Shown: positions 7,907 to 56,590 of the stretch, piece after piece | How positions within the stretch are numbered: position 1 is the stretch's first letter | Layout: every line of letters begins with the position of its first letter | Origin: an uncultured archaeon | Lineage (GTDB): Archaea > Asgardarchaeota > Thorarchaeia > Thorarchaeales > Thorarchaeaceae | Reading direction: 5' to 3' | Length of the DNA: 61,986 nt | Assembly (NCBI GenBank): GCA_964590575.1 | Contig: CAZPWM010000006.1 | Span: forward strand, 1 to 61,986 | Notes under the pieces: generated by a model | Database searches by the model: none | What the model saw: the letters and a program-made list of their open reading frames with translations, nothing else | Told to the model about the DNA's origin: nothing | Program-made: the position numbers and the translations under genes

Positions 7907-8866
7907 TTGCAAACTCCCTATTCAGAATTCGCACAATCCATAGTTAATCTATTCATACCAATATCCGACTTTTTCCAATCCATCGGTATTCCATTTGGTC
8001 CAATGGCATGGATGTTTATTATTACTGTAACCTCATTACTCCTAATCATTGTCCTACTGGTTGTTCGTGGACGACGTGTTTCTGGAAGCGCTGGCGTAGA
8101 TGAAGGAATAAGGAAAATCATCGCATCAACTGGTGATGTATCGAGTGGTCTAGCAAGTGCTAAGAAACTCAAGTTTCTAAAGACACCGGCACAAGCACTT
8201 GTATTTCTCAAAGTCGAGGAAAATGCAATCCAACAAGCATTGTCTGCCATTGATTACTATAACCAACAAGGTGACATTGATGAAGCCATAAAGGACAAGC
8301 TTGTCACAGTATATCAAGACCGTTTAGCATCAGTTAGAGTAGCTCTTGCTAAGGATGAAGAACTCAAGGAAATTGTAGATACATCTTCTGCTGTCGACAG
8401 AGCACGATCTGACTATCTTGCCAAACTTGCTGCGATGTCTGGAACTACTGTCGAATCTGATTCAGGAGAAGCTGGACCTACCAGCGTCGGAATGCCTGAA
8501 GCAGCAAGTGCTGAGCCTCCAAGTGGCGGACCTCCTAGTGGAGGAGCCCCAAGTGCTGGGCCTCCAAGTGGTGGACCTCCTAGTGGAGGAGCCCCAAGTG
8601 CTGGGCCTCCAAGTGGTGGACCTCCCGGTGGAGCTCCAACTAGTGGACCTCCAAGTGGTGGACCTCTCGGTGGTACAACAGCGACTGAAATATCTCCAAG
8701 TGCTGGGCCTCCAAGTGGCGGACCTCCCGGTGGAGCTCCAAGTAGTGGTCCTCCAGGTGGCGCAGCAATAGGCGAAACTCCCAAACCTGTCGGCGGGAAG
8801 AGTTCCTTACAGTCAGAAATGCTTGCAGAAATGGAGCGTTTGAAAGCTCTGATGGGCGGCGACTAA
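7907..8866 (+). CDS. Membrane-anchored protein with Pro/Gly-rich repeat and C-terminal amphipathic helix
   Basis: N-terminal TM helix, helical domain, (GPPSG/GAPSA)n tract. Confidence 0.85.
   Translation: MQTPYSEFAQSIVNLFIPISDFFQSIGIPFGPMAWMFIITVTSLLLIIVLLVVRGRRVSGSAGVDEGIRKIIASTGDVSSGLASAKKLKFLKTPAQALVFLKVEENAIQQALSAIDYYNQQGDIDEAIKDKLVTVYQDRLASVRVALAKDEELKEIVDTSSAVDRARSDYLAKLAAMSGTTVESDSGEAGPTSVGMPEAASAEPPSGGPPSGGAPSAGPPSGGPPSGGAPSAGPPSGGPPGGAPTSGPPSGGPLGGTTATEISPSAGPPSGGPPGGAPSSGPPGGAAIGETPKPVGGKSSLQSEMLAEMERLKALMGGD
8517..8760 (+). repeat. Coding tandem repeat (15-bp units encoding PPSGG/APSAG)
   Basis: Repeated CCTCCAAGTGG(C/T)GGA-type units in frame. Confidence 0.9.
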
Positions 8867-44283: not shown

Positions 44284-48265
<3,982 letters not shown>

Positions 48266-48667: not shown

Positions 48668-49102
48668 TTGGGACGAGTTAAGCTCTCTATGGATGACATG
48701 GCTCTAATCGCCAAGTTCGAGCAAATCACAGGCGCTGCTGCAGTTGATATTATTCGTGATGATGAGGGAGAACGTATCATAGTCGTAGTTCGTCCAAAGC
48801 AATTAGGAAAAGCGATTGGTCGCGGCGGAGTAAATGTGAAAGCCGCGTCAGACGCCTTTGGGCGTGTTGTTGATGTTGTCGAGATGGCTGAAACTGCTGA
48901 GGCTTTTGTTATGAGTGCGCTCGCTCCGGCTAGAGTTGAAGGTGTAAAGATTATAGAGCGCCGTGATGGCACTAAGGTAGCATCAGTAACTGTCAACAAC
49001 GAAGACCGAGGAATCGCAATTGGTCGTGACGGTCGAAATGTTGCTCGGGCTCGCATTTTAGTACGTCGTCACTTCGATTTGAACAATGTTGTAATTGCCT
49101 GA
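48668..49102 (+). CDS. nusA: Archaeal NusA
   Basis: Two KH motifs AIGRGG and AIGRDGRN; conserved position. Confidence 0.96.
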   Translation: MGRVKLSMDDMALIAKFEQITGAAAVDIIRDDEGERIIVVVRPKQLGKAIGRGGVNVKAASDAFGRVVDVVEMAETAEAFVMSALAPARVEGVKIIERRDGTKVASVTVNNEDRGIAIGRDGRNVARARILVRRHFDLNNVVIA

Positions 49103-49108
49103 AGTGTG

Positions 49109-49195
49109 CTGGAAGCGTTCTTTTCATAATCGTTCATTGTAAATTGGACAAACTTGGGTTTCAAGTAGTCCGCCCAAGAACGACACTGGGCTTGG
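49109..49195 (-). ncRNA. omega/reRNA-like scaffold 1 plus flank-derived guide
   Basis: Hairpin GCCCAG-TGTCGTTC-TTGGGC, second stem, CAATTTACAATGAACGAT end pairing with the loop (pseudoknot); overlaps the tnpB stop codon. Confidence 0.72.
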
Positions 49196-51260
49196 ATTGT
49201 TGAACATGCATTATGTTACGCGCTGCATTAACATCTGCATGGAAATACTCATCACACTTTGAACAGTGGAAATATTCTCCTCCTTTTCTCTCCATTATTG
49301 AAGTTGCATTTTCCACACGCACTCCTCTTTCTCCACACACATGACAAGTCTGAGAGGTCCAAGCAGGGTTCACCATACAGATTCCCCCATTTCTATGTCC
49401 AAGGGTGTTTCGACGATAGCGCACACCCTCAATCATTTGACCCCACAGGTTAGCTGATAGATTCCAACTGTGTCTTCTCATTCCTCTCTTTCCTTGGAAG
49501 GAACGGAGATCCTCAAAGAAGATGGTCTTCACCTGCCGATGTTCACAGAACCACACTGTTTCAGCAGCGACTTGGTGGGAGATTTCTCTATCGAGACGAC
49601 GGACTTTTTGCCATACTGCCTCCAATTCACGTTCTTTTTTCATGATGTACGCAGGAGGATGCAGTCCCTGATGCTTTCTCTCCCAATTATTTCGTTTCAG
49701 TGTCACCTCTGACATCAAGATTCTTGATTTCTGTCGCAAGTGTTCTCTTCTTTCATACAGTTCCTGTCTTCCTATCATTTTCTCTGAATAACCATTTTCT
49801 CCATTTTTAACGGAAACTACCATGGAGTGCCTGAGACCTCTATCGACACCTGCTTTTTTCGATTTTTTACCAATCCTAGGAAGTGTTTCACTTAGAATCT
49901 TCTCGTCGGGAGTCATAAAGGGGATAATCAATGTAGCTCTATTTCCAGTTAGTTTGATTAAAGGAGGCGCAGTGGTACGAGATTGTTTGAGTCTCTGTTT
50001 TAATGCTTTGAGTTGGTCTATTCGCTCAACATTCTTCTTAGGCTGCGCTCGCTCTTTCGCAAGTTCTCGAGTGACGTGCTGAATCTGAATCGTGTTGTAC
50101 AGCTGTTGATTCATGTCATCATACTTTTCAGCTCTGAATTCCAATTCAACCGACCGTTTCAAGTCGCCTCGAAACCTCACCTCTTCAGCCATCATCCTTG
50201 CACGTGCAGCTTTTCGTGGAAACCAGTTGAGAAAACGCAATCGAAGAGTGTGGCTTCTATAAGGGGAGTGTGAATCATCTTCAAATCCTATCACACCAGG
50301 AGGAGTCTTGATGTACAGTACTATCTCATCCTGTCTCTGTGGATCAGGTGAGAACCAATAGCCTTGTCCTGTTGCATTTTCCGTGGATGCGGAATAATCT
50401 ATTGTGTCTTTTTGAAAGACAGGTATTTCGAAAGGAAAACCAGATTGATGCCAATTATTGATTAGATTCCTAATGAATCCCTCTGCTTGATTTTTCAAAA
50501 CTGATTGCTTGAGGAGTTCATGTGCTCTAAGTTTCATTCTATTTTCTTGTAGTGGGAATGATTTTGATAATTCATCTCTTAAGACTCGTCGGACTTGTCT
50601 ACATGCTGATAGAGCGTAATGAAAGTCACCTGCTGCTTTGATGGCAATAGTGTCCTTGAGAAGTCTCACAATGTCGGAAGGTATCCTCTTGTTAATGACC
50701 AATCTCCTAGTATGCTCATCATCAACGACGAGAATCTCGAGTAGTGAGTTGACCAATTTTCTCCGGGTATAGTCGGAATGAATAATCCGAGCCGCCGTTT
50801 CAAGAACACTTCGATGCATTCGTTCATGGACTAGTTTACCAAAGTCGTTGTTTGTACCCCATTTGAGATGATTCTTCTTCTTGAGAATAACATTCATCAT
50901 TCCATGGTACTCACTTATCTCTCGACCTAACTCATAAGCATATGACTGATTTGAGAACACCCTCTCCAAAACTAAATTGACAGCTATTCGATAATTTCTA
51001 AAACTCTGGCCAAGAACTGATAGATCCAAATCACTACATTTTCGGCCAGTGTGTGAAAATCCTAATGATGATATAGATTTTGCAGGACTTTTTCCAGTGC
51101 CTTTTCTTGCAACAACTCGATGGTACGAATTCAAGTCGAACTTTTGAGATAGAAAGGTCGATGATGGACAACGATAGTTACCGTCCATTGTAAATTGCTT
51201 TAGTCCTTCATCAGAAGAAACAATCTGCTCGCGGGAACGGCGCCGCGATGTTTTGGTCAT
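49161..51260 (-). CDS. tnpB: Enlarged TnpB/Cas12-like RNA-guided RuvC endonuclease
   Basis: RuvC-I GVDRG, RuvC-II FFEDL, VNPAWTSQTCHVCG...FHCSKC...HADVNAARNI; GGTGA SD and TTAAATA box upstream. Confidence 0.92.
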   Translation of the reverse strand: MTKTSRRRSREQIVSSDEGLKQFTMDGNYRCPSSTFLSQKFDLNSYHRVVARKGTGKSPAKSISSLGFSHTGRKCSDLDLSVLGQSFRNYRIAVNLVLERVFSNQSYAYELGREISEYHGMMNVILKKKNHLKWGTNNDFGKLVHERMHRSVLETAARIIHSDYTRRKLVNSLLEILVVDDEHTRRLVINKRIPSDIVRLLKDTIAIKAAGDFHYALSACRQVRRVLRDELSKSFPLQENRMKLRAHELLKQSVLKNQAEGFIRNLINNWHQSGFPFEIPVFQKDTIDYSASTENATGQGYWFSPDPQRQDEIVLYIKTPPGVIGFEDDSHSPYRSHTLRLRFLNWFPRKAARARMMAEEVRFRGDLKRSVELEFRAEKYDDMNQQLYNTIQIQHVTRELAKERAQPKKNVERIDQLKALKQRLKQSRTTAPPLIKLTGNRATLIIPFMTPDEKILSETLPRIGKKSKKAGVDRGLRHSMVVSVKNGENGYSEKMIGRQELYERREHLRQKSRILMSEVTLKRNNWERKHQGLHPPAYIMKKERELEAVWQKVRRLDREISHQVAAETVWFCEHRQVKTIFFEDLRSFQGKRGMRRHSWNLSANLWGQMIEGVRYRRNTLGHRNGGICMVNPAWTSQTCHVCGERGVRVENATSIMERKGGEYFHCSKCDEYFHADVNAARNIMHVQQSKPSVVLGRTT
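51164..51250 (-). ncRNA. Second omega-RNA-like scaffold plus 16-nt promoter-matching guide, within the tnpB 5' coding region
   Basis: Hairpin TCGCGG-CGCCGTTC-CCGCGA, CAATTTACAATGGACGGT end, then AACTATCGTTGTCCAT. Confidence 0.68.
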
Positions 51261-51293
51261 CGACCTTTCACCATAATGATTTTCTGTTCGAGA

Positions 51294-51342
51294 TATTTAA
51301 GTCCATACTTCGTATGGACAACGATAGTTATCAGATTAAAAG
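51294..51342. promoter_or_regulatory. Divergent promoter region containing the protospacer (51314-51329) for guide 2
   Basis: TTAAATA box on minus strand at 51294-51300; palindrome GTCCATAC-TTC-GTATGGAC; exact 17-bp repeat of 51164-51180. Confidence 0.62.
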
Positions 51343-51382
51343 AACATACAATTTTTTGATATTAAAATAATGCAACATTTCG

Positions 51383-54300
51383 ATGAATAAAGACATTTTT
51401 ATCGAATCAATACATAATAGATTACTCGTAAAAAACAAGAAAAATATAAAGAAAAACGATGGTATGATTGTGATGACTCGTAAGAGGGGACGTCCAACCA
51501 AACCAATACCAGTACATCCTGAACGAGTCATATCAAGAGCTTTTCAGACTGGTCTCTCTTCTACAGTTGAGCTTCAAAGGACTATTAGTAACAAGACATC
51601 ACGAAAGCATTACGAAAGCTCTCGCAATAGTCTGAATATCGCACGTCAAGTATACATGTTAACAAAAAACAAAGGCAATCCTGATCATTCATATTTTCTG
51701 AAGGCTGAGCCACAGATTCGAGATAATACTCACAAGATGCTTTTTGAAAATGGAGCCAAATACAATTTTACGGAGATCCAGCGACAGAAGAAATCTGATG
51801 ACACAGTCGGTCCCATCAATCAAAGATTGAATGCATGTGGAGCTGCACTGAGAGAGTTTGCCCATAGAGAATTCCCGTTTCCAGATCCTAAAGACTTTGG
51901 AATTCGCATCCAACAAGCTGGAAACACGGCAAAACAGTTCAGAGTGGCTGGATACGATGAATCATCCTATGGGCCTCGAGTTACCCTTGCACATCCAGAT
52001 CTCCCTTCAATGGACTTTGGTGATGCAGTCCGCAGTCACAATGAGTATCTTGCGACATTCTGTGCAATTCATGATGTTCCAGTTAGAGAAACCACTCGGT
52101 ACTCAAACTTGTTCCTCCTTCTTATTCGGCCCTATCTAGAGATGATTTATTCTGAGTATAAAGTCGGAAAATCCGGTTTTCAGAAAGGAGTGAACAATGC
52201 ACTGCGTCAGGTGAAGAAACTGATTGTGGAGGCTGGATTTCGACCTACCAAGTATAAGGAAGAAAGGGTGACCAGAAACTCTGAATTTGAATCCCCTCCT
52301 ACAAGTCTTAATTTCTTTGATGAACAGATTGAGGATGCTAAGAAATTCTATGGCCATTTGCATCCATTAGTCACTGAACTTGAGCGAATAAGGAATGGTG
52401 GAGTAACGAGAACTTATGCACCAGAAGACCCTGAAGATAAGTGCTTGACGATAAAGGATGTAGAATACATCAGAGATAAGGCGGTGAAAAGGGCGAGAAT
52501 AGCTGGGTCTATACTCCATAGACGAATTGCTGCCCTCTTTCCAAGTCCGTGGCATCTCAATGATGTCATATTTCGTGGAGACCGGTATGTTGGGAACTCT
52601 GACTATGTCATAGTTTCAGAGGTGCCTTTACAGACGAAGCGCGTCTCTGGAAAGGTCGACCTAATACTCTTCGAGCGAGTAATAACAGAGGATGGCAAGC
52701 TCGTCCTATGGGAACCGAAACTCGTCCTAGAGATTAAAACTCGAAAGGCTCAGAGATGGTGGATCGAGCCCGACTACAAAAATTCCGAGGTCAGATCGAT
52801 TCAAAGAGTGGTCAGCGAGTTTCCTATGGAAGACATCCCATTGAATAATGATATGTGGAATTCTATCATCAATTCAACTCCCAGAAACTCCACCCAGAAC
52901 CAGTTGAATGAGTATACCCAACTTCTTGCTGATTCCTTTCAACAATCCACAAAGAGAAAATTAGCAACGATTCTGACTGGAACTGTCATCATAGATTCTA
53001 GCTCAGAAATTGAAGAAGTTAGGAGTATCTTGGAACTTCTAGTTATACACTCATATGAAGAGATGAAAGACAGAAAACAAAGAATCAAACGCACGGCATT
53101 CACACCCAAAGGTTACAATCGTATTGCTTTGGTTATTCACAATCAAGCTGCTCCAGTGAGGGAGAAAGCTGAGGTAGCTACAATACCTTGGAGTCCCATC
53201 TATAATCCTTTCAAAATCAGAAATGAGTTCAAGAGAGAGTTCATTCTCTATCTCTCTGGCAAAACATCAACATCATCAGGTCAGTCAGCTACCTGGAATG
53301 CTAGGAATTATCACGGTCTCCAAATGCTCTACGACATTGAGAAGTCAAATGATAACACAGATCTTCTCTGGATCGACCTAGCAGACCAGTTCAGTAATTC
53401 CCATCTTGCTGAAGCACGATTACGTCTGAAACCCAGAGGATACTCCGAGGAAGAGTTGGTAAAGACTCATCCAGAACATATACGAGAATTCTTTGAGAAT
53501 GTTGAGGTCATAGGATGTCTAGATAAAATCCTGTCCTTCCTTTATCAAGAAGGAATCACACCACAGTTTGACTTTGAAAATAGGACAAATCATCCAAGGG
53601 TAATCGTTGTATCAGGTGCAGACACTCTACGAGAAGCGACTCCCTCATCTCATCGTGACAAACTCAAGATATTGGTGGACCAGCTGCTGAACAGTCTTCC
53701 CGATGACATATACACCACAGTTGTCTGGTTTGATTCCCCAGTTCCTTCTGTGGAGAAGGCCTTGCCATATTCAAGTAGGGCTCTTCTTCCATTTTATGAA
53801 GACGATTCGTTGGCGGAGATAGTGACAGACATCATTTGGAATCTGCCTGTGGCACCCATTGGGGCAGTAAGACCTGATATGTGGAAACTACCTATTATCG
53901 GTGATTCATCAATGCATGATGACATCAGGGTAATCATCCGTCATTCAATAACCAAATTAACCATTGAATTGACCCATGTTCCATTCCTAAGGGGTTGGTC
54001 CAAAAGGTTCAGGAACAAAGGGAGAGGTCTTGTTATACAGGAACGGAGCTTGGATGATGTTGTACCTGAGAAAGAAACACGGACTAGAATGAAATTACTG
54101 GCACTAACAATGACTCCTTGGCTGGTACGACTATGGCCAAATGAACATCTAACAACAGATTCAAGAAGAACTCTTGAGAGTCTAATTGTCCAGATTGAGA
54201 ATGAATCCAGACCGAATCTCCGAAGTTTTGTATTAAAAAAGAGAATCCTAAGAGAAGAAACCGAACCTCCCAATATCCTTGATCTACTTCGTCTTAGGCT

Positions 54301-56434
54301 TCCAGATACGCGTGATGCCAAATCGTATGCATCCATGACTGTGGGAAAAATCAATTCACAGCGACTTTATCGTGCTCAGAATAAGTTGAATGCAAAACCA
54401 GCCAAAGATACACCCACATTGCTCTTACATGAAGACTTCTTGATCCCAGCTGCTGAAACAGAGCCTGACCTAGTATTCGGAATTAAGTTTGAAACAGAAG
54501 ATGATGTGACACAGCCCTGGTGGATGGTCGTTCAAGATATCACTAATGAGGCAAGAATGTTAGTGGGTTGTTTTACTCATAGACCTGTTGCTAATGATGG
54601 TTTTCTCTGGGCGGATACCAAGATAGAAACATTGACGCAGCATAGCTTCGACGATATTCTTAGTCTCCCACAGACAATCATGATTGGTAAGAAATCAAAG
54701 ATGGGAATGGAAACTTGGAGTTTAAGACAAGGTGATGATGAAGCGATTGACTCAGGCGTCCTTGAGGTAATAAGTCGAGGCCGCTCGACTGTAGGACACA
54801 TTCGTGCTGTTCGGCAGACTTTCTCTGAACTACCTAAGACCAAACCTACTACTGAAATCTTGTTACAAGAATCATTTTACAAACGCGTAGTCGATTCCCT
54901 TAAGCGATATCTCGAAGTGGTGACCAAACCGACTCATGTCACTGTGCACTTAGAAATGGTGGATGGTGAATGTCAAGTCACATTTCATGATGCAGAAGAT
55001 GTTATGCTTCAGACTGTCACACTCGATAACACTGCAGATCTCATCTCTTTGCTCCGGTGGCCCATGATTAAAGACGGATCAATGTTCACTGACTCTGGGG
55101 TGTTTGTGATTTGGAGTGTCTTTGAAGACATCCAGTTTGGAGATTTAGACTTTCTAAGACCATACGTTTCCTACAAAGCCGCACGGTCTACTCCTGAGGA
55201 ACTTCCTACGCGAGTAGCACAGTTCTTTGACGAGGCAGAAGAAATCCAAGTGGGCATCGAACATGATCAGTCAACTTGTCCCATATTCTTGGATGGAGCT
55301 GCAGACCATGGAGAATGTTGGAGAATTGTTCTAGCAAACGATTGTCCTAAACCAGTCAGAAAGCAGATTGGAAGTGCTATGACAGGAGAGGAGATTAACG
55401 GCATCCTTGCACCAGAAAGGTTGTATGCTGGGAAACTGTACAAGTTTAAAATTACATTACCGACAGTATCCGAGAAGGATGAGAGTATCGTTTTCCACGA
55501 AGACAAGTTCATTCGCATATTTCTCCGCAACCAAGGGTTAGTCCTGAAGAAACTTGCTCCAGGAACCTATCTGAATGTCACAAGACAACAATGGATGGTC
55601 GAGATTTCGTGGGAAGATGATACGCATCTCAAATGGAATGCACAGTCCACAGTTTCAGAACTCTTCTTCAGAGGTGAACGCCATACAATTGAACTCACCC
55701 ATGGTCGTGGGGCAGAAGAAGAATGCGAACGAATCTTAGGAATAATCACTTCAGATATTTTACAAGAACAGATAGCAAACTATTCCAAACTCGAGGGAAA
55801 TTTGTTATCTGATCTCACAGACAAAGGATATACCAAGTTAAGTCCTCCATGTGAGCTCCGTGTCATCGAGTCGACGAATACAGACTTCAGTTTTGGAATC
55901 TACCCTGTTGAAGGAACTCGTATAGCCCCTTATCTTAGATTTACTGTCATTGTTACAAGTGAGGAATCACCGGATGCGCTGATTAAGGGATTAGATATGA
56001 GTTTCTCAGAGGGTGAGCTGAGTCATTATTCCATCAGAAACAAGGATGCGTTCATGAAAAAGTTCAGTTCATGGGTGAGTAGAAATGTGCCTGTCATAGA
56101 AGAATTGTCTGAGGAACCAGAAGAATGGGAAGTTACCCTTTTTGTCAATGTGAAGACACATGAAATCTTCTGGGAGGCTGAGCAGCACTCTAGGGAAGCT
56201 CACCAGACTGACCTTCTCTATGGTGACAAGAAAATCTTACTGGATAGTAGTATCGAGAAAGCAGAACAAGAATTAGGAGAAATCTTTGAGGCGGACGTAG
56301 TACAAAGGCTACTTCATATTTCCAATCTTGATGACGTCTTGAAAATTCAAATACCTGAAATGATTAGAAAACTTCGTTTTTGCAAACCTTCAGCAGATTT
56401 GACTTCTGAGTCTGATGACCAAATTCACCATTGA
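51383..56434 (+). CDS. Giant hypothetical protein with PD-(D/E)XK nuclease domain, AT-hook-like motif and degenerate P-loop-like region
   Basis: SEVPL...GKVDLIL...LEIKT...QLNEY; RKRGRP near probable start (~51474); LYLSGKTS...LLWIDL...VIVVSGADTL. Confidence 0.8.
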   Translation: MNKDIFIESIHNRLLVKNKKNIKKNDGMIVMTRKRGRPTKPIPVHPERVISRAFQTGLSSTVELQRTISNKTSRKHYESSRNSLNIARQVYMLTKNKGNPDHSYFLKAEPQIRDNTHKMLFENGAKYNFTEIQRQKKSDDTVGPINQRLNACGAALREFAHREFPFPDPKDFGIRIQQAGNTAKQFRVAGYDESSYGPRVTLAHPDLPSMDFGDAVRSHNEYLATFCAIHDVPVRETTRYSNLFLLLIRPYLEMIYSEYKVGKSGFQKGVNNALRQVKKLIVEAGFRPTKYKEERVTRNSEFESPPTSLNFFDEQIEDAKKFYGHLHPLVTELERIRNGGVTRTYAPEDPEDKCLTIKDVEYIRDKAVKRARIAGSILHRRIAALFPSPWHLNDVIFRGDRYVGNSDYVIVSEVPLQTKRVSGKVDLILFERVITEDGKLVLWEPKLVLEIKTRKAQRWWIEPDYKNSEVRSIQRVVSEFPMEDIPLNNDMWNSIINSTPRNSTQNQLNEYTQLLADSFQQSTKRKLATILTGTVIIDSSSEIEEVRSILELLVIHSYEEMKDRKQRIKRTAFTPKGYNRIALVIHNQAAPVREKAEVATIPWSPIYNPFKIRNEFKREFILYLSGKTSTSSGQSATWNARNYHGLQMLYDIEKSNDNTDLLWIDLADQFSNSHLAEARLRLKPRGYSEEELVKTHPEHIREFFENVEVIGCLDKILSFLYQEGITPQFDFENRTNHPRVIVVSGADTLREATPSSHRDKLKILVDQLLNSLPDDIYTTVVWFDSPVPSVEKALPYSSRALLPFYEDDSLAEIVTDIIWNLPVAPIGAVRPDMWKLPIIGDSSMHDDIRVIIRHSITKLTIELTHVPFLRGWSKRFRNKGRGLVIQERSLDDVVPEKETRTRMKLLALTMTPWLVRLWPNEHLTTDSRRTLESLIVQIENESRPNLRSFVLKKRILREETEPPNILDLLRLRLPDTRDAKSYASMTVGKINSQRLYRAQNKLNAKPAKDTPTLLLHEDFLIPAAETEPDLVFGIKFETEDDVTQPWWMVVQDITNEARMLVGCFTHRPVANDGFLWADTKIETLTQHSFDDILSLPQTIMIGKKSKMGMETWSLRQGDDEAIDSGVLEVISRGRSTVGHIRAVRQTFSELPKTKPTTEILLQESFYKRVVDSLKRYLEVVTKPTHVTVHLEMVDGECQVTFHDAEDVMLQTVTLDNTADLISLLRWPMIKDGSMFTDSGVFVIWSVFEDIQFGDLDFLRPYVSYKAARSTPEELPTRVAQFFDEAEEIQVGIEHDQSTCPIFLDGAADHGECWRIVLANDCPKPVRKQIGSAMTGEEINGILAPERLYAGKLYKFKITLPTVSEKDESIVFHEDKFIRIFLRNQGLVLKKLAPGTYLNVTRQQWMVEISWEDDTHLKWNAQSTVSELFFRGERHTIELTHGRGAEEECERILGIITSDILQEQIANYSKLEGNLLSDLTDKGYTKLSPPCELRVIESTNTDFSFGIYPVEGTRIAPYLRFTVIVTSEESPDALIKGLDMSFSEGELSHYSIRNKDAFMKKFSSWVSRNVPVIEELSEEPEEWEVTLFVNVKTHEIFWEAEQHSREAHQTDLLYGDKKILLDSSIEKAEQELGEIFEADVVQRLLHISNLDDVLKIQIPEMIRKLRFCKPSADLTSESDDQIHH

Positions 56435-56590
56435 GGAAGTCAGGCCATCTCAATATTGAATTAGTCCTGAATATGTTAGAGATATCTCACGCCACTTCAT
56501 AATCCTTTTAAGGTTACAACAGGCCGGAGCCGACAACCACCATTCAGTGCGTACCATGAATGGTACGTCGACCCTAAGAGGTAAATCATA

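Follow-up and report, generated by a model that had tools for sequence, protein, structure and literature searches.

A tnpB-like gene in an IS607-type element of an Asgard archaeon encodes a guide-like sequence that matches its own promoter region and may direct self-repression

The 61,986-nt stretch of DNA analysed here (the window; NCBI GenBank assembly GCA_964590575.1, contig CAZPWM010000006.1, positions 1 to 61,986) comes from an uncultured archaeon of the Thorarchaeaceae and carries an inserted IS607-type element with two genes, a minus-strand tnpB-like gene and a divergent open reading frame (ORF) of 1683 aa. The coordinates of its features, including a canonical omega-RNA scaffold at the 3' end of tnpB (scaffold 1, followed by guide 1) and a second, putative one at the 5' end (scaffold 2, followed by guide 2), are collected in Table 1. 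Central to our analysis is a 17-nt direct repeat, ATGGACAACGATAGTTA on the plus strand and TAACTATCGTTGTCCAT in the sense of tnpB, which occupies positions 51164–51180 and 51314–51330 with 100% identity and a spacing of 150 nt. The downstream copy lies within codons 27–32 of tnpB, where ..CAATTTACAATGGACGGT is followed by AACTATCGTTGTCCAT (guide 2) and then by CATCGACCTTTC. The upstream copy, which we term the self-target, lies before the gene, where CTGAT is followed by the same AACTATCGTTGTCCAT, then by a palindrome and, 12 nt on, by CTTAAATA, a TATA-like box.

With two mismatches allowed, two matches were found against 0.02 expected, a number reached in none of 100 shuffles. The 17-mer, the 16-mer and the motif-side 12 nt each occur at only these two places in the 3.4-Mb genome (194 contigs), and the repeat is the only local one of at least 14 nt within 400 nt in the window besides the coding tandem repeats at 8515–8639 and 46997–47014. 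The shuffles, the genome-wide uniqueness and the absence of comparable local repeats led us to reject chance as its origin. The two tandem repeats have periods of 42–45 nt and 30 nt, and the one at 46997–47014 lies near the start of an rpoA''-like gene. The original prediction for this locus, made from the DNA letters, had described a 16-nt guide after scaffold 2 that recurs exactly upstream, and had invoked truncated guides that bind without cutting. The recurrence is borne out, the repeat being one base longer than the 16 nt at which the match was said to stop; the first copy belongs to the reading frame of tnpB rather than to non-coding RNA, and a guide of 16 nt has the complete natural TnpB length and is not truncated (passages of 10.1101/2023.11.30.569447).

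Paralogous loci were drawn from the window's own genome (6 places), from its genus (10 of 41 genomes searched, every match falling in this genus) and from public genome contigs labelled Candidatus Thorarchaeota (the best 80 of 129 relatives). L003 and three other rows were dropped for want of upstream DNA; the 49-locus set leaves out loci with <150 nt upstream and duplicates recognised by an identical 139-nt segment. In 21 of 21 loci of a first set, the 16 nt that follow a motif in the coding sequence recur 51–73 nt before the start codon with 11–16 of 16 positions identical. Across the 49 distinct loci, the agreement of guide 2 with its own upstream region reached at least 12 of 16 positions in 45 loci, at least 14 in 29 and all 16 in five (window included), as compared with 198 and 16 of 2352 non-self pairs at the first two thresholds. 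The remaining four loci show an 11-nt run (two loci) or nothing (L090 and L108). In an unanchored longest-common-substring test, 30 of 54 self pairs reached 12 nt or more, as opposed to 16 of 2862 non-self pairs. The guides of the first 21 loci fall into seven unrelated types, and 19 of these 21 guides fit their own promoter best when set against promoters of the other types. Among copies sharing a genome, at least 10 of the 12 seed-side positions agree in 32 of 34 self pairs and in only 5 of 94 ordered pairs between copies. Because an old duplication would have decayed at the 41–63% identity that separates the homologous proteins of our alignment A2 from the TnpB of the window, the identity within each copy must be maintained. 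The original prediction had named retention of guide–promoter identity in diverged homologues as a test, and 45 of the 49 loci retain it.

The edge of the match is abrupt, since among the 45 matching loci positions -2 and -1 differ in 39 and 25, respectively, and positions 1 and 2 in none. Mismatches at positions 1 to 16 number 0, 0, 1, 1, 0, 7, 1, 2, 1, 5, 9, 7, 12, 12, 21 and 19 (n = 45) and rise to 31–42 beyond, the profile expected of a 16-nt guide with a motif-side seed. The matching strand is the sense strand and a conserved pentamer stands 5' of the target; this geometry fits the strand and motif-side rule of TnpB and Cas12 effectors, which agrees with the outer donor joints described below. 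The mismatches at position 6 belong to two clades, and positions 1–9 are otherwise nearly mismatch-free. The locus L103 (match 824–2710) is a degraded copy with stops in its N-terminal part, in which the inner pair is kept as an 11-nt run (13 of 16 by hand count).

The sequence preceding guide 2 resembles the omega-RNA of the same gene. A covariance model (R1), for which only the 3' ends of the omega-RNAs of 34 paralogues were used, gave, when searched against L001 alone, the scaffold 2 match with an E-value of 0.0003, ending exactly at the guide boundary; in this alignment a hairpin, A' (CGCGG-CGCCGUUC-CCGCG), and GCAAUUUACAAUGGACGGU are aligned to the model. Of the 19 loci searched, 18 yielded scaffold 1 with R1; the other one has no 3' end. 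The further R1 matches in the 88 kb of these loci number 19 at E ≤ 10, of which 15 lie at the 5' end of tnpB and terminate at the base before the 16-mer, as verified by hand, leaving four that correspond neither to scaffold 1 nor to the guide-2 boundary. The match in the window spans the 5' leader and codons 1–27. The 5' leader together with the first ~27 codons therefore reads as a diverged and shortened copy of the 3' part of the omega-RNA, and the original prediction's scaffold 2 is thus real in the sense that a model trained on 3' scaffolds alone finds it. In each of the 21 loci of the first set, a multiple of three nucleotides separates the start codon from the end of the motif. A search of positions 48900–51600 against Rfam returned no family at E up to 1.

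Two paired elements frame this unit. Across 41 loci, 99% of the alignment cells of hairpin A', the counterpart of hairpin A of the omega-RNA, are paired, with compensatory changes in three of five pairs. In the closing stem, whose arms form a perfect inverted repeat of 13 nt (I8), the start-codon region is paired with a sequence that begins at the last guide base. This stem covaries in the same loci, one of its pairs alternating between U-A (19 loci), C-G (14) and U-G (4). Taken together, hairpin A' and the closing stem are paired in 88.3% of cells. Both partners have changed in 10 of their 15 pairs, none of 500 shuffles matched the covariation score, and the corresponding 131-nt RNA of the window (C6) folds at -45.2 kcal/mol (z = -5.0). 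The paired, covarying stems and the strong fold therefore indicate that selection acts on the RNA. Within it, the guide sits between an omega-like end motif and a stem that would hide the start codon. The left arm of the palindrome beside the promoter copy is the far end of the self-target, and in relatives of the one clade that has it the arms read GCCCATAC..GTATGGGC, a compensatory change. The string ATGGAC is found also in the end motif of scaffold 2, which allows the distal part of the guide to base-pair with it when the RNA folds.

The 3' RNA of the gene is a standard omega-RNA whose guide is drawn from the right flank. Scaffold 1 overlaps the 3' end of tnpB and scores 106 bits with R1; in an alignment of 34 loci (A1), 95.4% of cells are paired and covariation is present. 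All paralogues share hairpin A (YCCAG-UGYCGUUC-CUGGR), a GGAC..GUCC stem and the end motif ACAAUGAACGRY, after which the sequence is unrelated from locus to locus. In empty sites the guide 1 sequence follows AGGAT, and empty sites at eight insertion sites confirmed that the guide is host flank. These eight independent sites also yielded the working motif of the donor joints, which has the consensus RGGNT with G at position -4 in 8 of 8.

The promoter-side target was located relative to a TATA-like 8-mer, which in a scored scan begins 39–43 nt before the start codon in 37 of the 45 loci; in 7 of 45 the scan picked an AT-rich string inside the target. From the end of the self-target to this box the distance is 0–14 nt, and 12 nt in the window; in all clades the self-target abuts the region of the TATA box and the TFB recognition element (BRE). 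By the usual archaeal spacing the transcript would begin about where the 5' arm of the closing stem begins, and a complex bound to the target would be predicted to sit on or beside the BRE/TATA region. The sequence adjacent to the target has the logo YTGNT in these loci, with a pyrimidine at -5, T (43), C (2) or G (0) at -4, G at -3 in 43 and T at -1 in 45. The original prediction had likened CTGAT to TTGAT, the target-adjacent motif (TAM) of ISDra2 TnpB; a TAM of this form does not agree with RGGNT at all eight donor joints. Its broader idea of a guide aimed at the gene's own promoter keeps the covariation, the omega-like unit and the TATA/BRE-side target in its favour; CTGAT as a TAM and the truncated guide are not supported, and its suggestion of an addiction or anti-inhibitor sensor stays conjectural.

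Table 1. Features of the IS607-type element and its tnpB-like gene, with positions in the window.
Feature	Positions	Strand	Details	Evidence
Inserted IS607-type element	49129..56501	-	7373 bp, without tnpA	Empty sites, run contigs, flanking genes
tnpB-like gene	49161..51260	-	699 aa; RuvC D473/E583/D676; CxxC..CxxC zinc finger	Pfam, NCBIfam, alignment A2, Foldseek
Guide 1	49113..49128	-	TATGAAAAGAACGCTT, flanking host DNA	After conserved scaffold end ..ACAATGAACGAT; empty sites
Scaffold 1	49129..49233	-	3' 105 nt of omega-RNA: hairpin A, stem B, end motif	Alignment A1, model R1
Closing stem, 3' arm	51152..51164	-	TCATCGACCTTTC, begins at last guide base	Inverted repeat I8, covariation, minimum-energy fold
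Guide 2	51164..51179	-	AACTATCGTTGTCCAT, codes TnpB residues 28–32 (NYRCP)	Repeat analysis, locus comparison
Scaffold 2 (putative)	51180..51287	-	Diverged partial copy of omega-RNA 3' part, ending ..CAATTTACAATGGACGGT	R1 match, 23.4 bits
Hairpin A'	51230..51247	-	CGCGG-CGCCGTTC-CCGCG, counterpart of omega-RNA hairpin A	Covariation, fold
Closing stem, 5' arm	51257..51269	-	GAAAGGTCGATGA; start codon at 51260–51258	Inverted repeat, covariation, fold
TATA-like box	51294..51301	-	CTTAAATA, 41 nt before start codon	Consensus by eye, unmapped promoter
Palindrome	51301..51319	-	GTCCATAC-GAAG-TATGGAC, between target and TATA-like box	One clade only
Self-target	51314..51329	-	Promoter copy of guide 2, 16/16 identical	Repeat analysis, locus comparison
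TAM-like CTGAT	51330..51334	-	Family consensus YTGNT	Logo from 45 loci
Divergent 1683-aa ORF	51383..56434	+	Carried by element	Homologues divergent to tnpB in 10 further loci
AGGAT at donor joint	56502..56506	-	Real target-adjacent motif for guide 1	Empty sites, printed junctions
Donor-joint motifs, eight sites			AGGAT; GGGGT; GGGCT/AGGCT; AGGCT/AGGTT/AGGAT; AGGGT; AGGGT; CGGAT/AGGAT; AGAGT/AGGGT	Empty sites

The protein encoded by the tnpB-like gene contains the motifs GVDRG, FFEDL and HADVNAARNI, and its residues D473, E583, D676, C639, C642, C666 and C669 do not vary among the 13 long forms compared (alignment A2). In Pfam it scores above the cut-off for Cas12f1-like_TNB (48.1 bits versus 26.3) and below it for OrfB_IS605 (21.5 versus 30.5), and both NCBIfam scores, for guided_TnpB (70.7 bits versus 100) and IS607_TnpB (36.1 versus 350), also fall below their cut-offs. 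A search of PDB sequences returned weak Cas12f matches (E 2e-5). The best Foldseek matches were likewise Cas12f (E 7e-6), from a mediocre structure model with a predicted local distance difference test score (pLDDT) of 68.9 and a predicted template modelling score of 0.44, which was used for matches at the family level only. The N-terminal extension comprises ~270 aa; residues 1–79 have pLDDT <50 and are predicted to be disordered, and the columns encoded by the guide are variable in A2. Two short paralogues (G000 C49:5500–6786 and C25:29972–31204) have open frames of 457 and 446 aa and lack the N-terminal ~270 aa and the 5' unit, yet have the 3' omega-RNA end; they may be truncated relics or members of a short subfamily.

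The element lies, in the region 49103–56590 of the window, within a conserved string of rpo and ribosomal genes, which by Pfam reads rpoB, rpoA', rpoA'', an L7Ae/L30e-family gene and a NusA-like KH gene, then S12 and S7. It falls between the NusA-like gene and S12, only 26 nt from the NusA-like stop codon. The 9-nt sequence TTCATAATC is present at both junctions (49123–49131 and 56496–56504) and as a single copy in empty sites, which leaves the register of the element uncertain by up to 9 nt. The sequence ..GGAAGCGTTCTTTTCATAATCCTTTTAAGG.. runs uninterrupted through 10 related genomes, which represent empty sites, and 49102 is joined to 56496 in contigs of the metagenome runs X4 and X7. The element of the window holds no serine recombinase TnpA, the combination of a MerR-like helix-turn-helix (HTH) and a resolvase domain. 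Because relatives carry a tnpA of this kind (L046 and L056, truncated in L049), we assign the family to the IS607 type, and because it lacks tnpA the copy in the window would be non-autonomous. The empty sites place the left end at ~56501, 5 kb from the self-target, which led us to reject the self-target as the left end of the element. In L054, a 2480-bp tnpB-only derivative, the inner target still lies ~280 nt inside the left end.

In four of four elements with both junctions defined, the left end starts with the same letters as the right flank, i.e., guide 1. The sharing is exact over 6 nt in the window, 5 nt in L045 and 9 nt in L054, and in L052 it extends over ~65 nt at 88%, as a second copy of the 3' end of the host gene. 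The outer junctions thus have a layout in which the adjacent motif and the end of the scaffold are each followed by the same sequence. This repeat could have arisen by target duplication, could be an att-like core, or could reflect site choice by a guide that spans the joined ends of an excised circle, and the seed-length matches between left end and guide 1 suggest that guide RNAs may also help to select insertion sites. Three copies (L004, i.e., G000:C69, L030 and L022) each adjoin a tRNA gene at its 3' end, with guides 1 that resemble one another, and insertion may recur at this position. Matches to the empty site of the C69 copy spanned only the tRNA, so that its joint was unreadable, and the left flanks of the L017, L028 and L016 sites had no match among the DNA pieces searched.

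The divergent 1683-aa protein had no match in Pfam, NCBIfam, PDB sequences or the ESM Atlas. Because its homologues (25–62% identity) also lie divergent to tnpB in 10 other loci, it is best regarded as a conserved orphan cargo of these elements. Homology starts near residues 15–42, and the true start may be a later ATG near 51473. A D..ExK-like motif was noted by eye, and the putative "cargo nuclease" of the original prediction lacks a database match to stand on. The further proposal that guide 2 controls this gene fared no better. The self-target lies ~115–130 bp from the likely promoter of the giant gene (placed by eye), and the guide–target feature is retained in three loci that have no adjacent giant gene (L064, L065 and L122); on both counts the feature belongs to tnpB.

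The generality of the guide–promoter pair across about 45 diverged loci is the main result of this analysis; its architecture, conservation and covariation are direct observations. RNA-guided self-regulation is the best-supported reading of them. We infer, with a probability of roughly 55%, that the 5' end of the tnpB message functions as a small guide RNA through which TnpB reaches, and represses, the promoter of tnpB itself. The first ~110 nt of the message would be coding sequence and miniature omega-like guide RNA at once, comprising in order the 5' stem arm with the start codon, hairpin A', a linker, the end motif ACAAUGGACGGU, the 16-nt guide and the 3' stem arm. TnpB would bind this 5' unit as it binds the 3' omega-RNA, and guide 2 would lead the complex to the self-target, whose 16 bp are identical to the guide and lie beside the near-cognate CTGAT, 12 nt before the TATA-like box. 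There the complex could block TFB/TBP or RNA polymerase, and the outcome would be a negative feedback loop private to each copy of the element. Binding of the 5' unit, or a cut in the message behind the guide, would also halt translation of that message. The near-cognate motif, together with far-end or position 6 mismatches in most relatives, would be expected to spare the element from cutting itself.

Several observations weigh against this proposal. The R1 boundary match is missing in 4 of 19 loci, and scaffold 2 is both short (at most ~90 nt of RNA) and weak (E 0.005 to 9 in the 19-locus search). Two of the 49 loci have no guide–promoter match, and 11 of 49 have a mismatch within positions 1–6, where such effectors are least tolerant of mismatches. 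All loci come from relatives in one archaeal class, so that the counts overstate their independence. The promoter and the transcription start are placed by consensus alone, and none of the listed runs containing the window's DNA is recorded as RNA. All 13 long forms keep an intact nuclease triad and 5 of 49 loci are matched at 16 of 16 positions, so that the absence of cutting calls for an explanation. The shared layout of the outer junctions means that a DNA-level process could underlie both the inner and the outer repeats. Above all, the motif at the promoter site differs from that of the donor joints, and the right-end junction, which is necessarily uncut by its own guide, has C at -4, unlike RGGNT.

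The unusual adjacent motif is the weakest point of the self-regulation reading and, if that reading is right, its most interesting feature. Because the donor joints have G at -4, the right-end junction C and the promoter site T, this position looks like a self/non-self switch of which the promoter site would be a conserved third state. YTGNT may be an attenuated motif that permits binding without cutting, which would also explain the survival of 16/16 matches, or it may mark a site that is not engaged by TnpB; indeed, TnpB may not open the promoter site at all. Since the motif allows both readings, our confidence in RNA-guided self-repression is no higher than stated.

The same recognition could instead end in cleavage, serving copy-number control, as a trigger of recombinational repair or conversion, or as a suicide or addiction device. 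The invariant RuvC triad and zinc finger would suit such a role, as would the full 16/16 match in the window and four other loci at the natural TnpB guide length. We nevertheless consider cleavage unlikely, given that the promoter-site motif systematically avoids the RGGNT of real cut sites and that 44 of 49 loci carry mismatches. The perfect target also persists in sequenced DNA: a contig of run X1 spans the whole stretch, one of run X3 (50792–51456) covers both copies, and no joint or indel is listed for the run contigs at 51164–51334. A role in DNA-level recombination is a further alternative. The direct repeats, each after G-N-T, flank the promoter, start codon and scaffold 2, which could form an excisable promoter cassette, and could be crossover sites of an IS607 serine recombinase (a MerR-HTH and resolvase tnpA being present in relatives), sites of homology-dependent deletion, or the joint of an ancient tandem dimer. 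The outer junctions are alike in layout, with shared sequence of 5, 6 and 9 nt (exact) and ~65 nt (88%). A tandem dimer, with the order motif, left end, right end, left end, would account for the resemblance of scaffold 2 to scaffold 1, and is a plausible source of scaffold 2. As the explanation of the repeat, recombination is nonetheless improbable. Sites read by a protein should be conserved, but the 16-mers differ wholly between copies and are identical within a copy, and the product of an ancient duplication would have decayed at 41–63% protein identity. Islands of 16 nt are too short for gene conversion, the gradient of identity begins at the motif side, and the element of the window lacks tnpA. 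Contigs of four DNA runs contain no deletion joint, only the empty-site joints of related strains.

The closing stem invites an account in which the RNA acts in cis only, the locked start codon governing translation or stability of tnpB, perhaps through TnpB binding. The stem hides the start codon and covaries, the fold is strong, and the difference between the promoter-site motif and the working motif would then cause no difficulty. Such an account leaves unaccounted for the promoter copy that tracks the coding copy in 45 of 49 loci and the sharp boundary after a conserved pentamer, and direct repeats are unable to pair within one RNA. A translational switch is likely to be part of the story, and is unlikely to be the whole. 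The arrangement of two identical sites about the promoter at a distance of 150 bp, the first before the TATA-like box and the second at +80, also recalls paired operators of a DNA-binding protein joined by looping, and one clade has a palindrome by the upstream site. That the palindrome is confined to this clade, and that the sites differ among copies sharing a genome with no correspondingly variable DNA-binding protein, makes this by far the least probable of the explanations considered.

A fuller form of the self-repression model, which we advance tentatively and rate somewhat below even odds, would give the element two guide RNAs: the 3' omega-RNA aimed at the donor joint, and the second, miniature and partly coding omega-like RNA aimed at its own promoter. 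A T in place of the G at -4 would be a deliberately weakened motif at which an active nuclease binds without cutting, and a guide–target pair of its own in each copy would establish orthogonal feedback loops among up to eight copies per genome. Autoregulation would then have existed already at the transposon stage. If true, RNA-guided autoregulation would predate CRISPR, TnpB being the transposon ancestor of Cas12, and a guide could be embedded within the coding sequence of its own effector. A change at a single position of the adjacent motif would suffice to make a nuclease-competent effector a repressor at one site, which would offer a naturally evolved rule for designing compact TnpB editors that bind without cutting, and transposon copies could carry private control loops that do not cross-react. 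The covariation of guide and promoter makes the self-control hypothesis directly testable.

Natural self-matching guides through which an RNA-guided effector regulates itself are known from Cas9 (tracr-L) and from the type I and V-A CRISPR systems (CreR). In the literature covered, including passages of the TnpB survey PMC10691335, we found no TnpB guide aimed at its own promoter. The long-form tracrRNA tracr-L autoregulates Cas9 (10.1101/2020.05.21.102756; 10.1101/2023.11.30.569447, in part). As proposed here, a natural guide-like RNA derived from the effector's own scaffold leads a nuclease-competent effector to its own promoter, which Cas9 binds without cutting; in the thorarchaeal element the absence of cutting is our reading of the motif. 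The effector here is a TnpB-like protein of a transposon, and the guide lies inside the coding sequence and 5' leader of the effector itself. Cas9 reportedly pairs through a truncated match of ~11 nt, while the match here reaches 16 nt and protection would come from the near-cognate motif.

The CreR and related cr-like RNAs come from degenerate mini-CRISPRs and autorepress cas genes of types I-B, I-E and V-A (10.1101/2023.03.10.532045 and 10.1101/2023.03.03.530964, in part). They share with the 5' unit a degenerate copy of a guide-RNA scaffold and partial complementarity to the effector promoter, and the V-A case involves Cas12, a descendant of TnpB. Unlike these systems, the locus described here has no CRISPR repeat or array; its guide unit would be an incomplete copy of the omega-RNA, joined in frame with the gene of the effector, and its host is an IS607-type transposon of an Asgard archaeon. 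The TldR proteins, nuclease-dead homologues of TnpB that act as RNA-guided transcription factors (passages of 10.1101/2023.11.30.569447), resemble our proposal in their TnpB fold, omega-like RNA, guides of 9–16 nt, TAM-adjacent promoter binding and repression. TldRs have lost the RuvC triad and the transposon context and repress host genes (fliC and oppA), whereas here the triad is intact, the element is mobile, the 3' omega-RNA is normal and the target is the element's own promoter.

Repression of tnpB within a transposon also has a protein-based precedent in Arc, a ribbon-helix-helix repressor of IS605-family elements that reads DNA directly (10.64898/2026.09.24.754181, in part). In both cases the tnpB promoter would be held down by a factor encoded in the element, with specificity here coming from RNA. 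Canonical IS605 and IS607 TnpB systems, as described in passages of 10.1101/2023.11.30.569447 and PMC10691335, have a scaffold that overlaps the 3' end of tnpB, a guide of ~16 nt from the right flank, a TAM on the donor joint and a serine recombinase tnpA, all of which recur here, the last in relatives. The element of the window departs from this plan in its 699-aa protein with a ~270-aa N-terminal extension, in its large orphan cargo and in a second, 5' omega-like unit whose guide matches the element itself.

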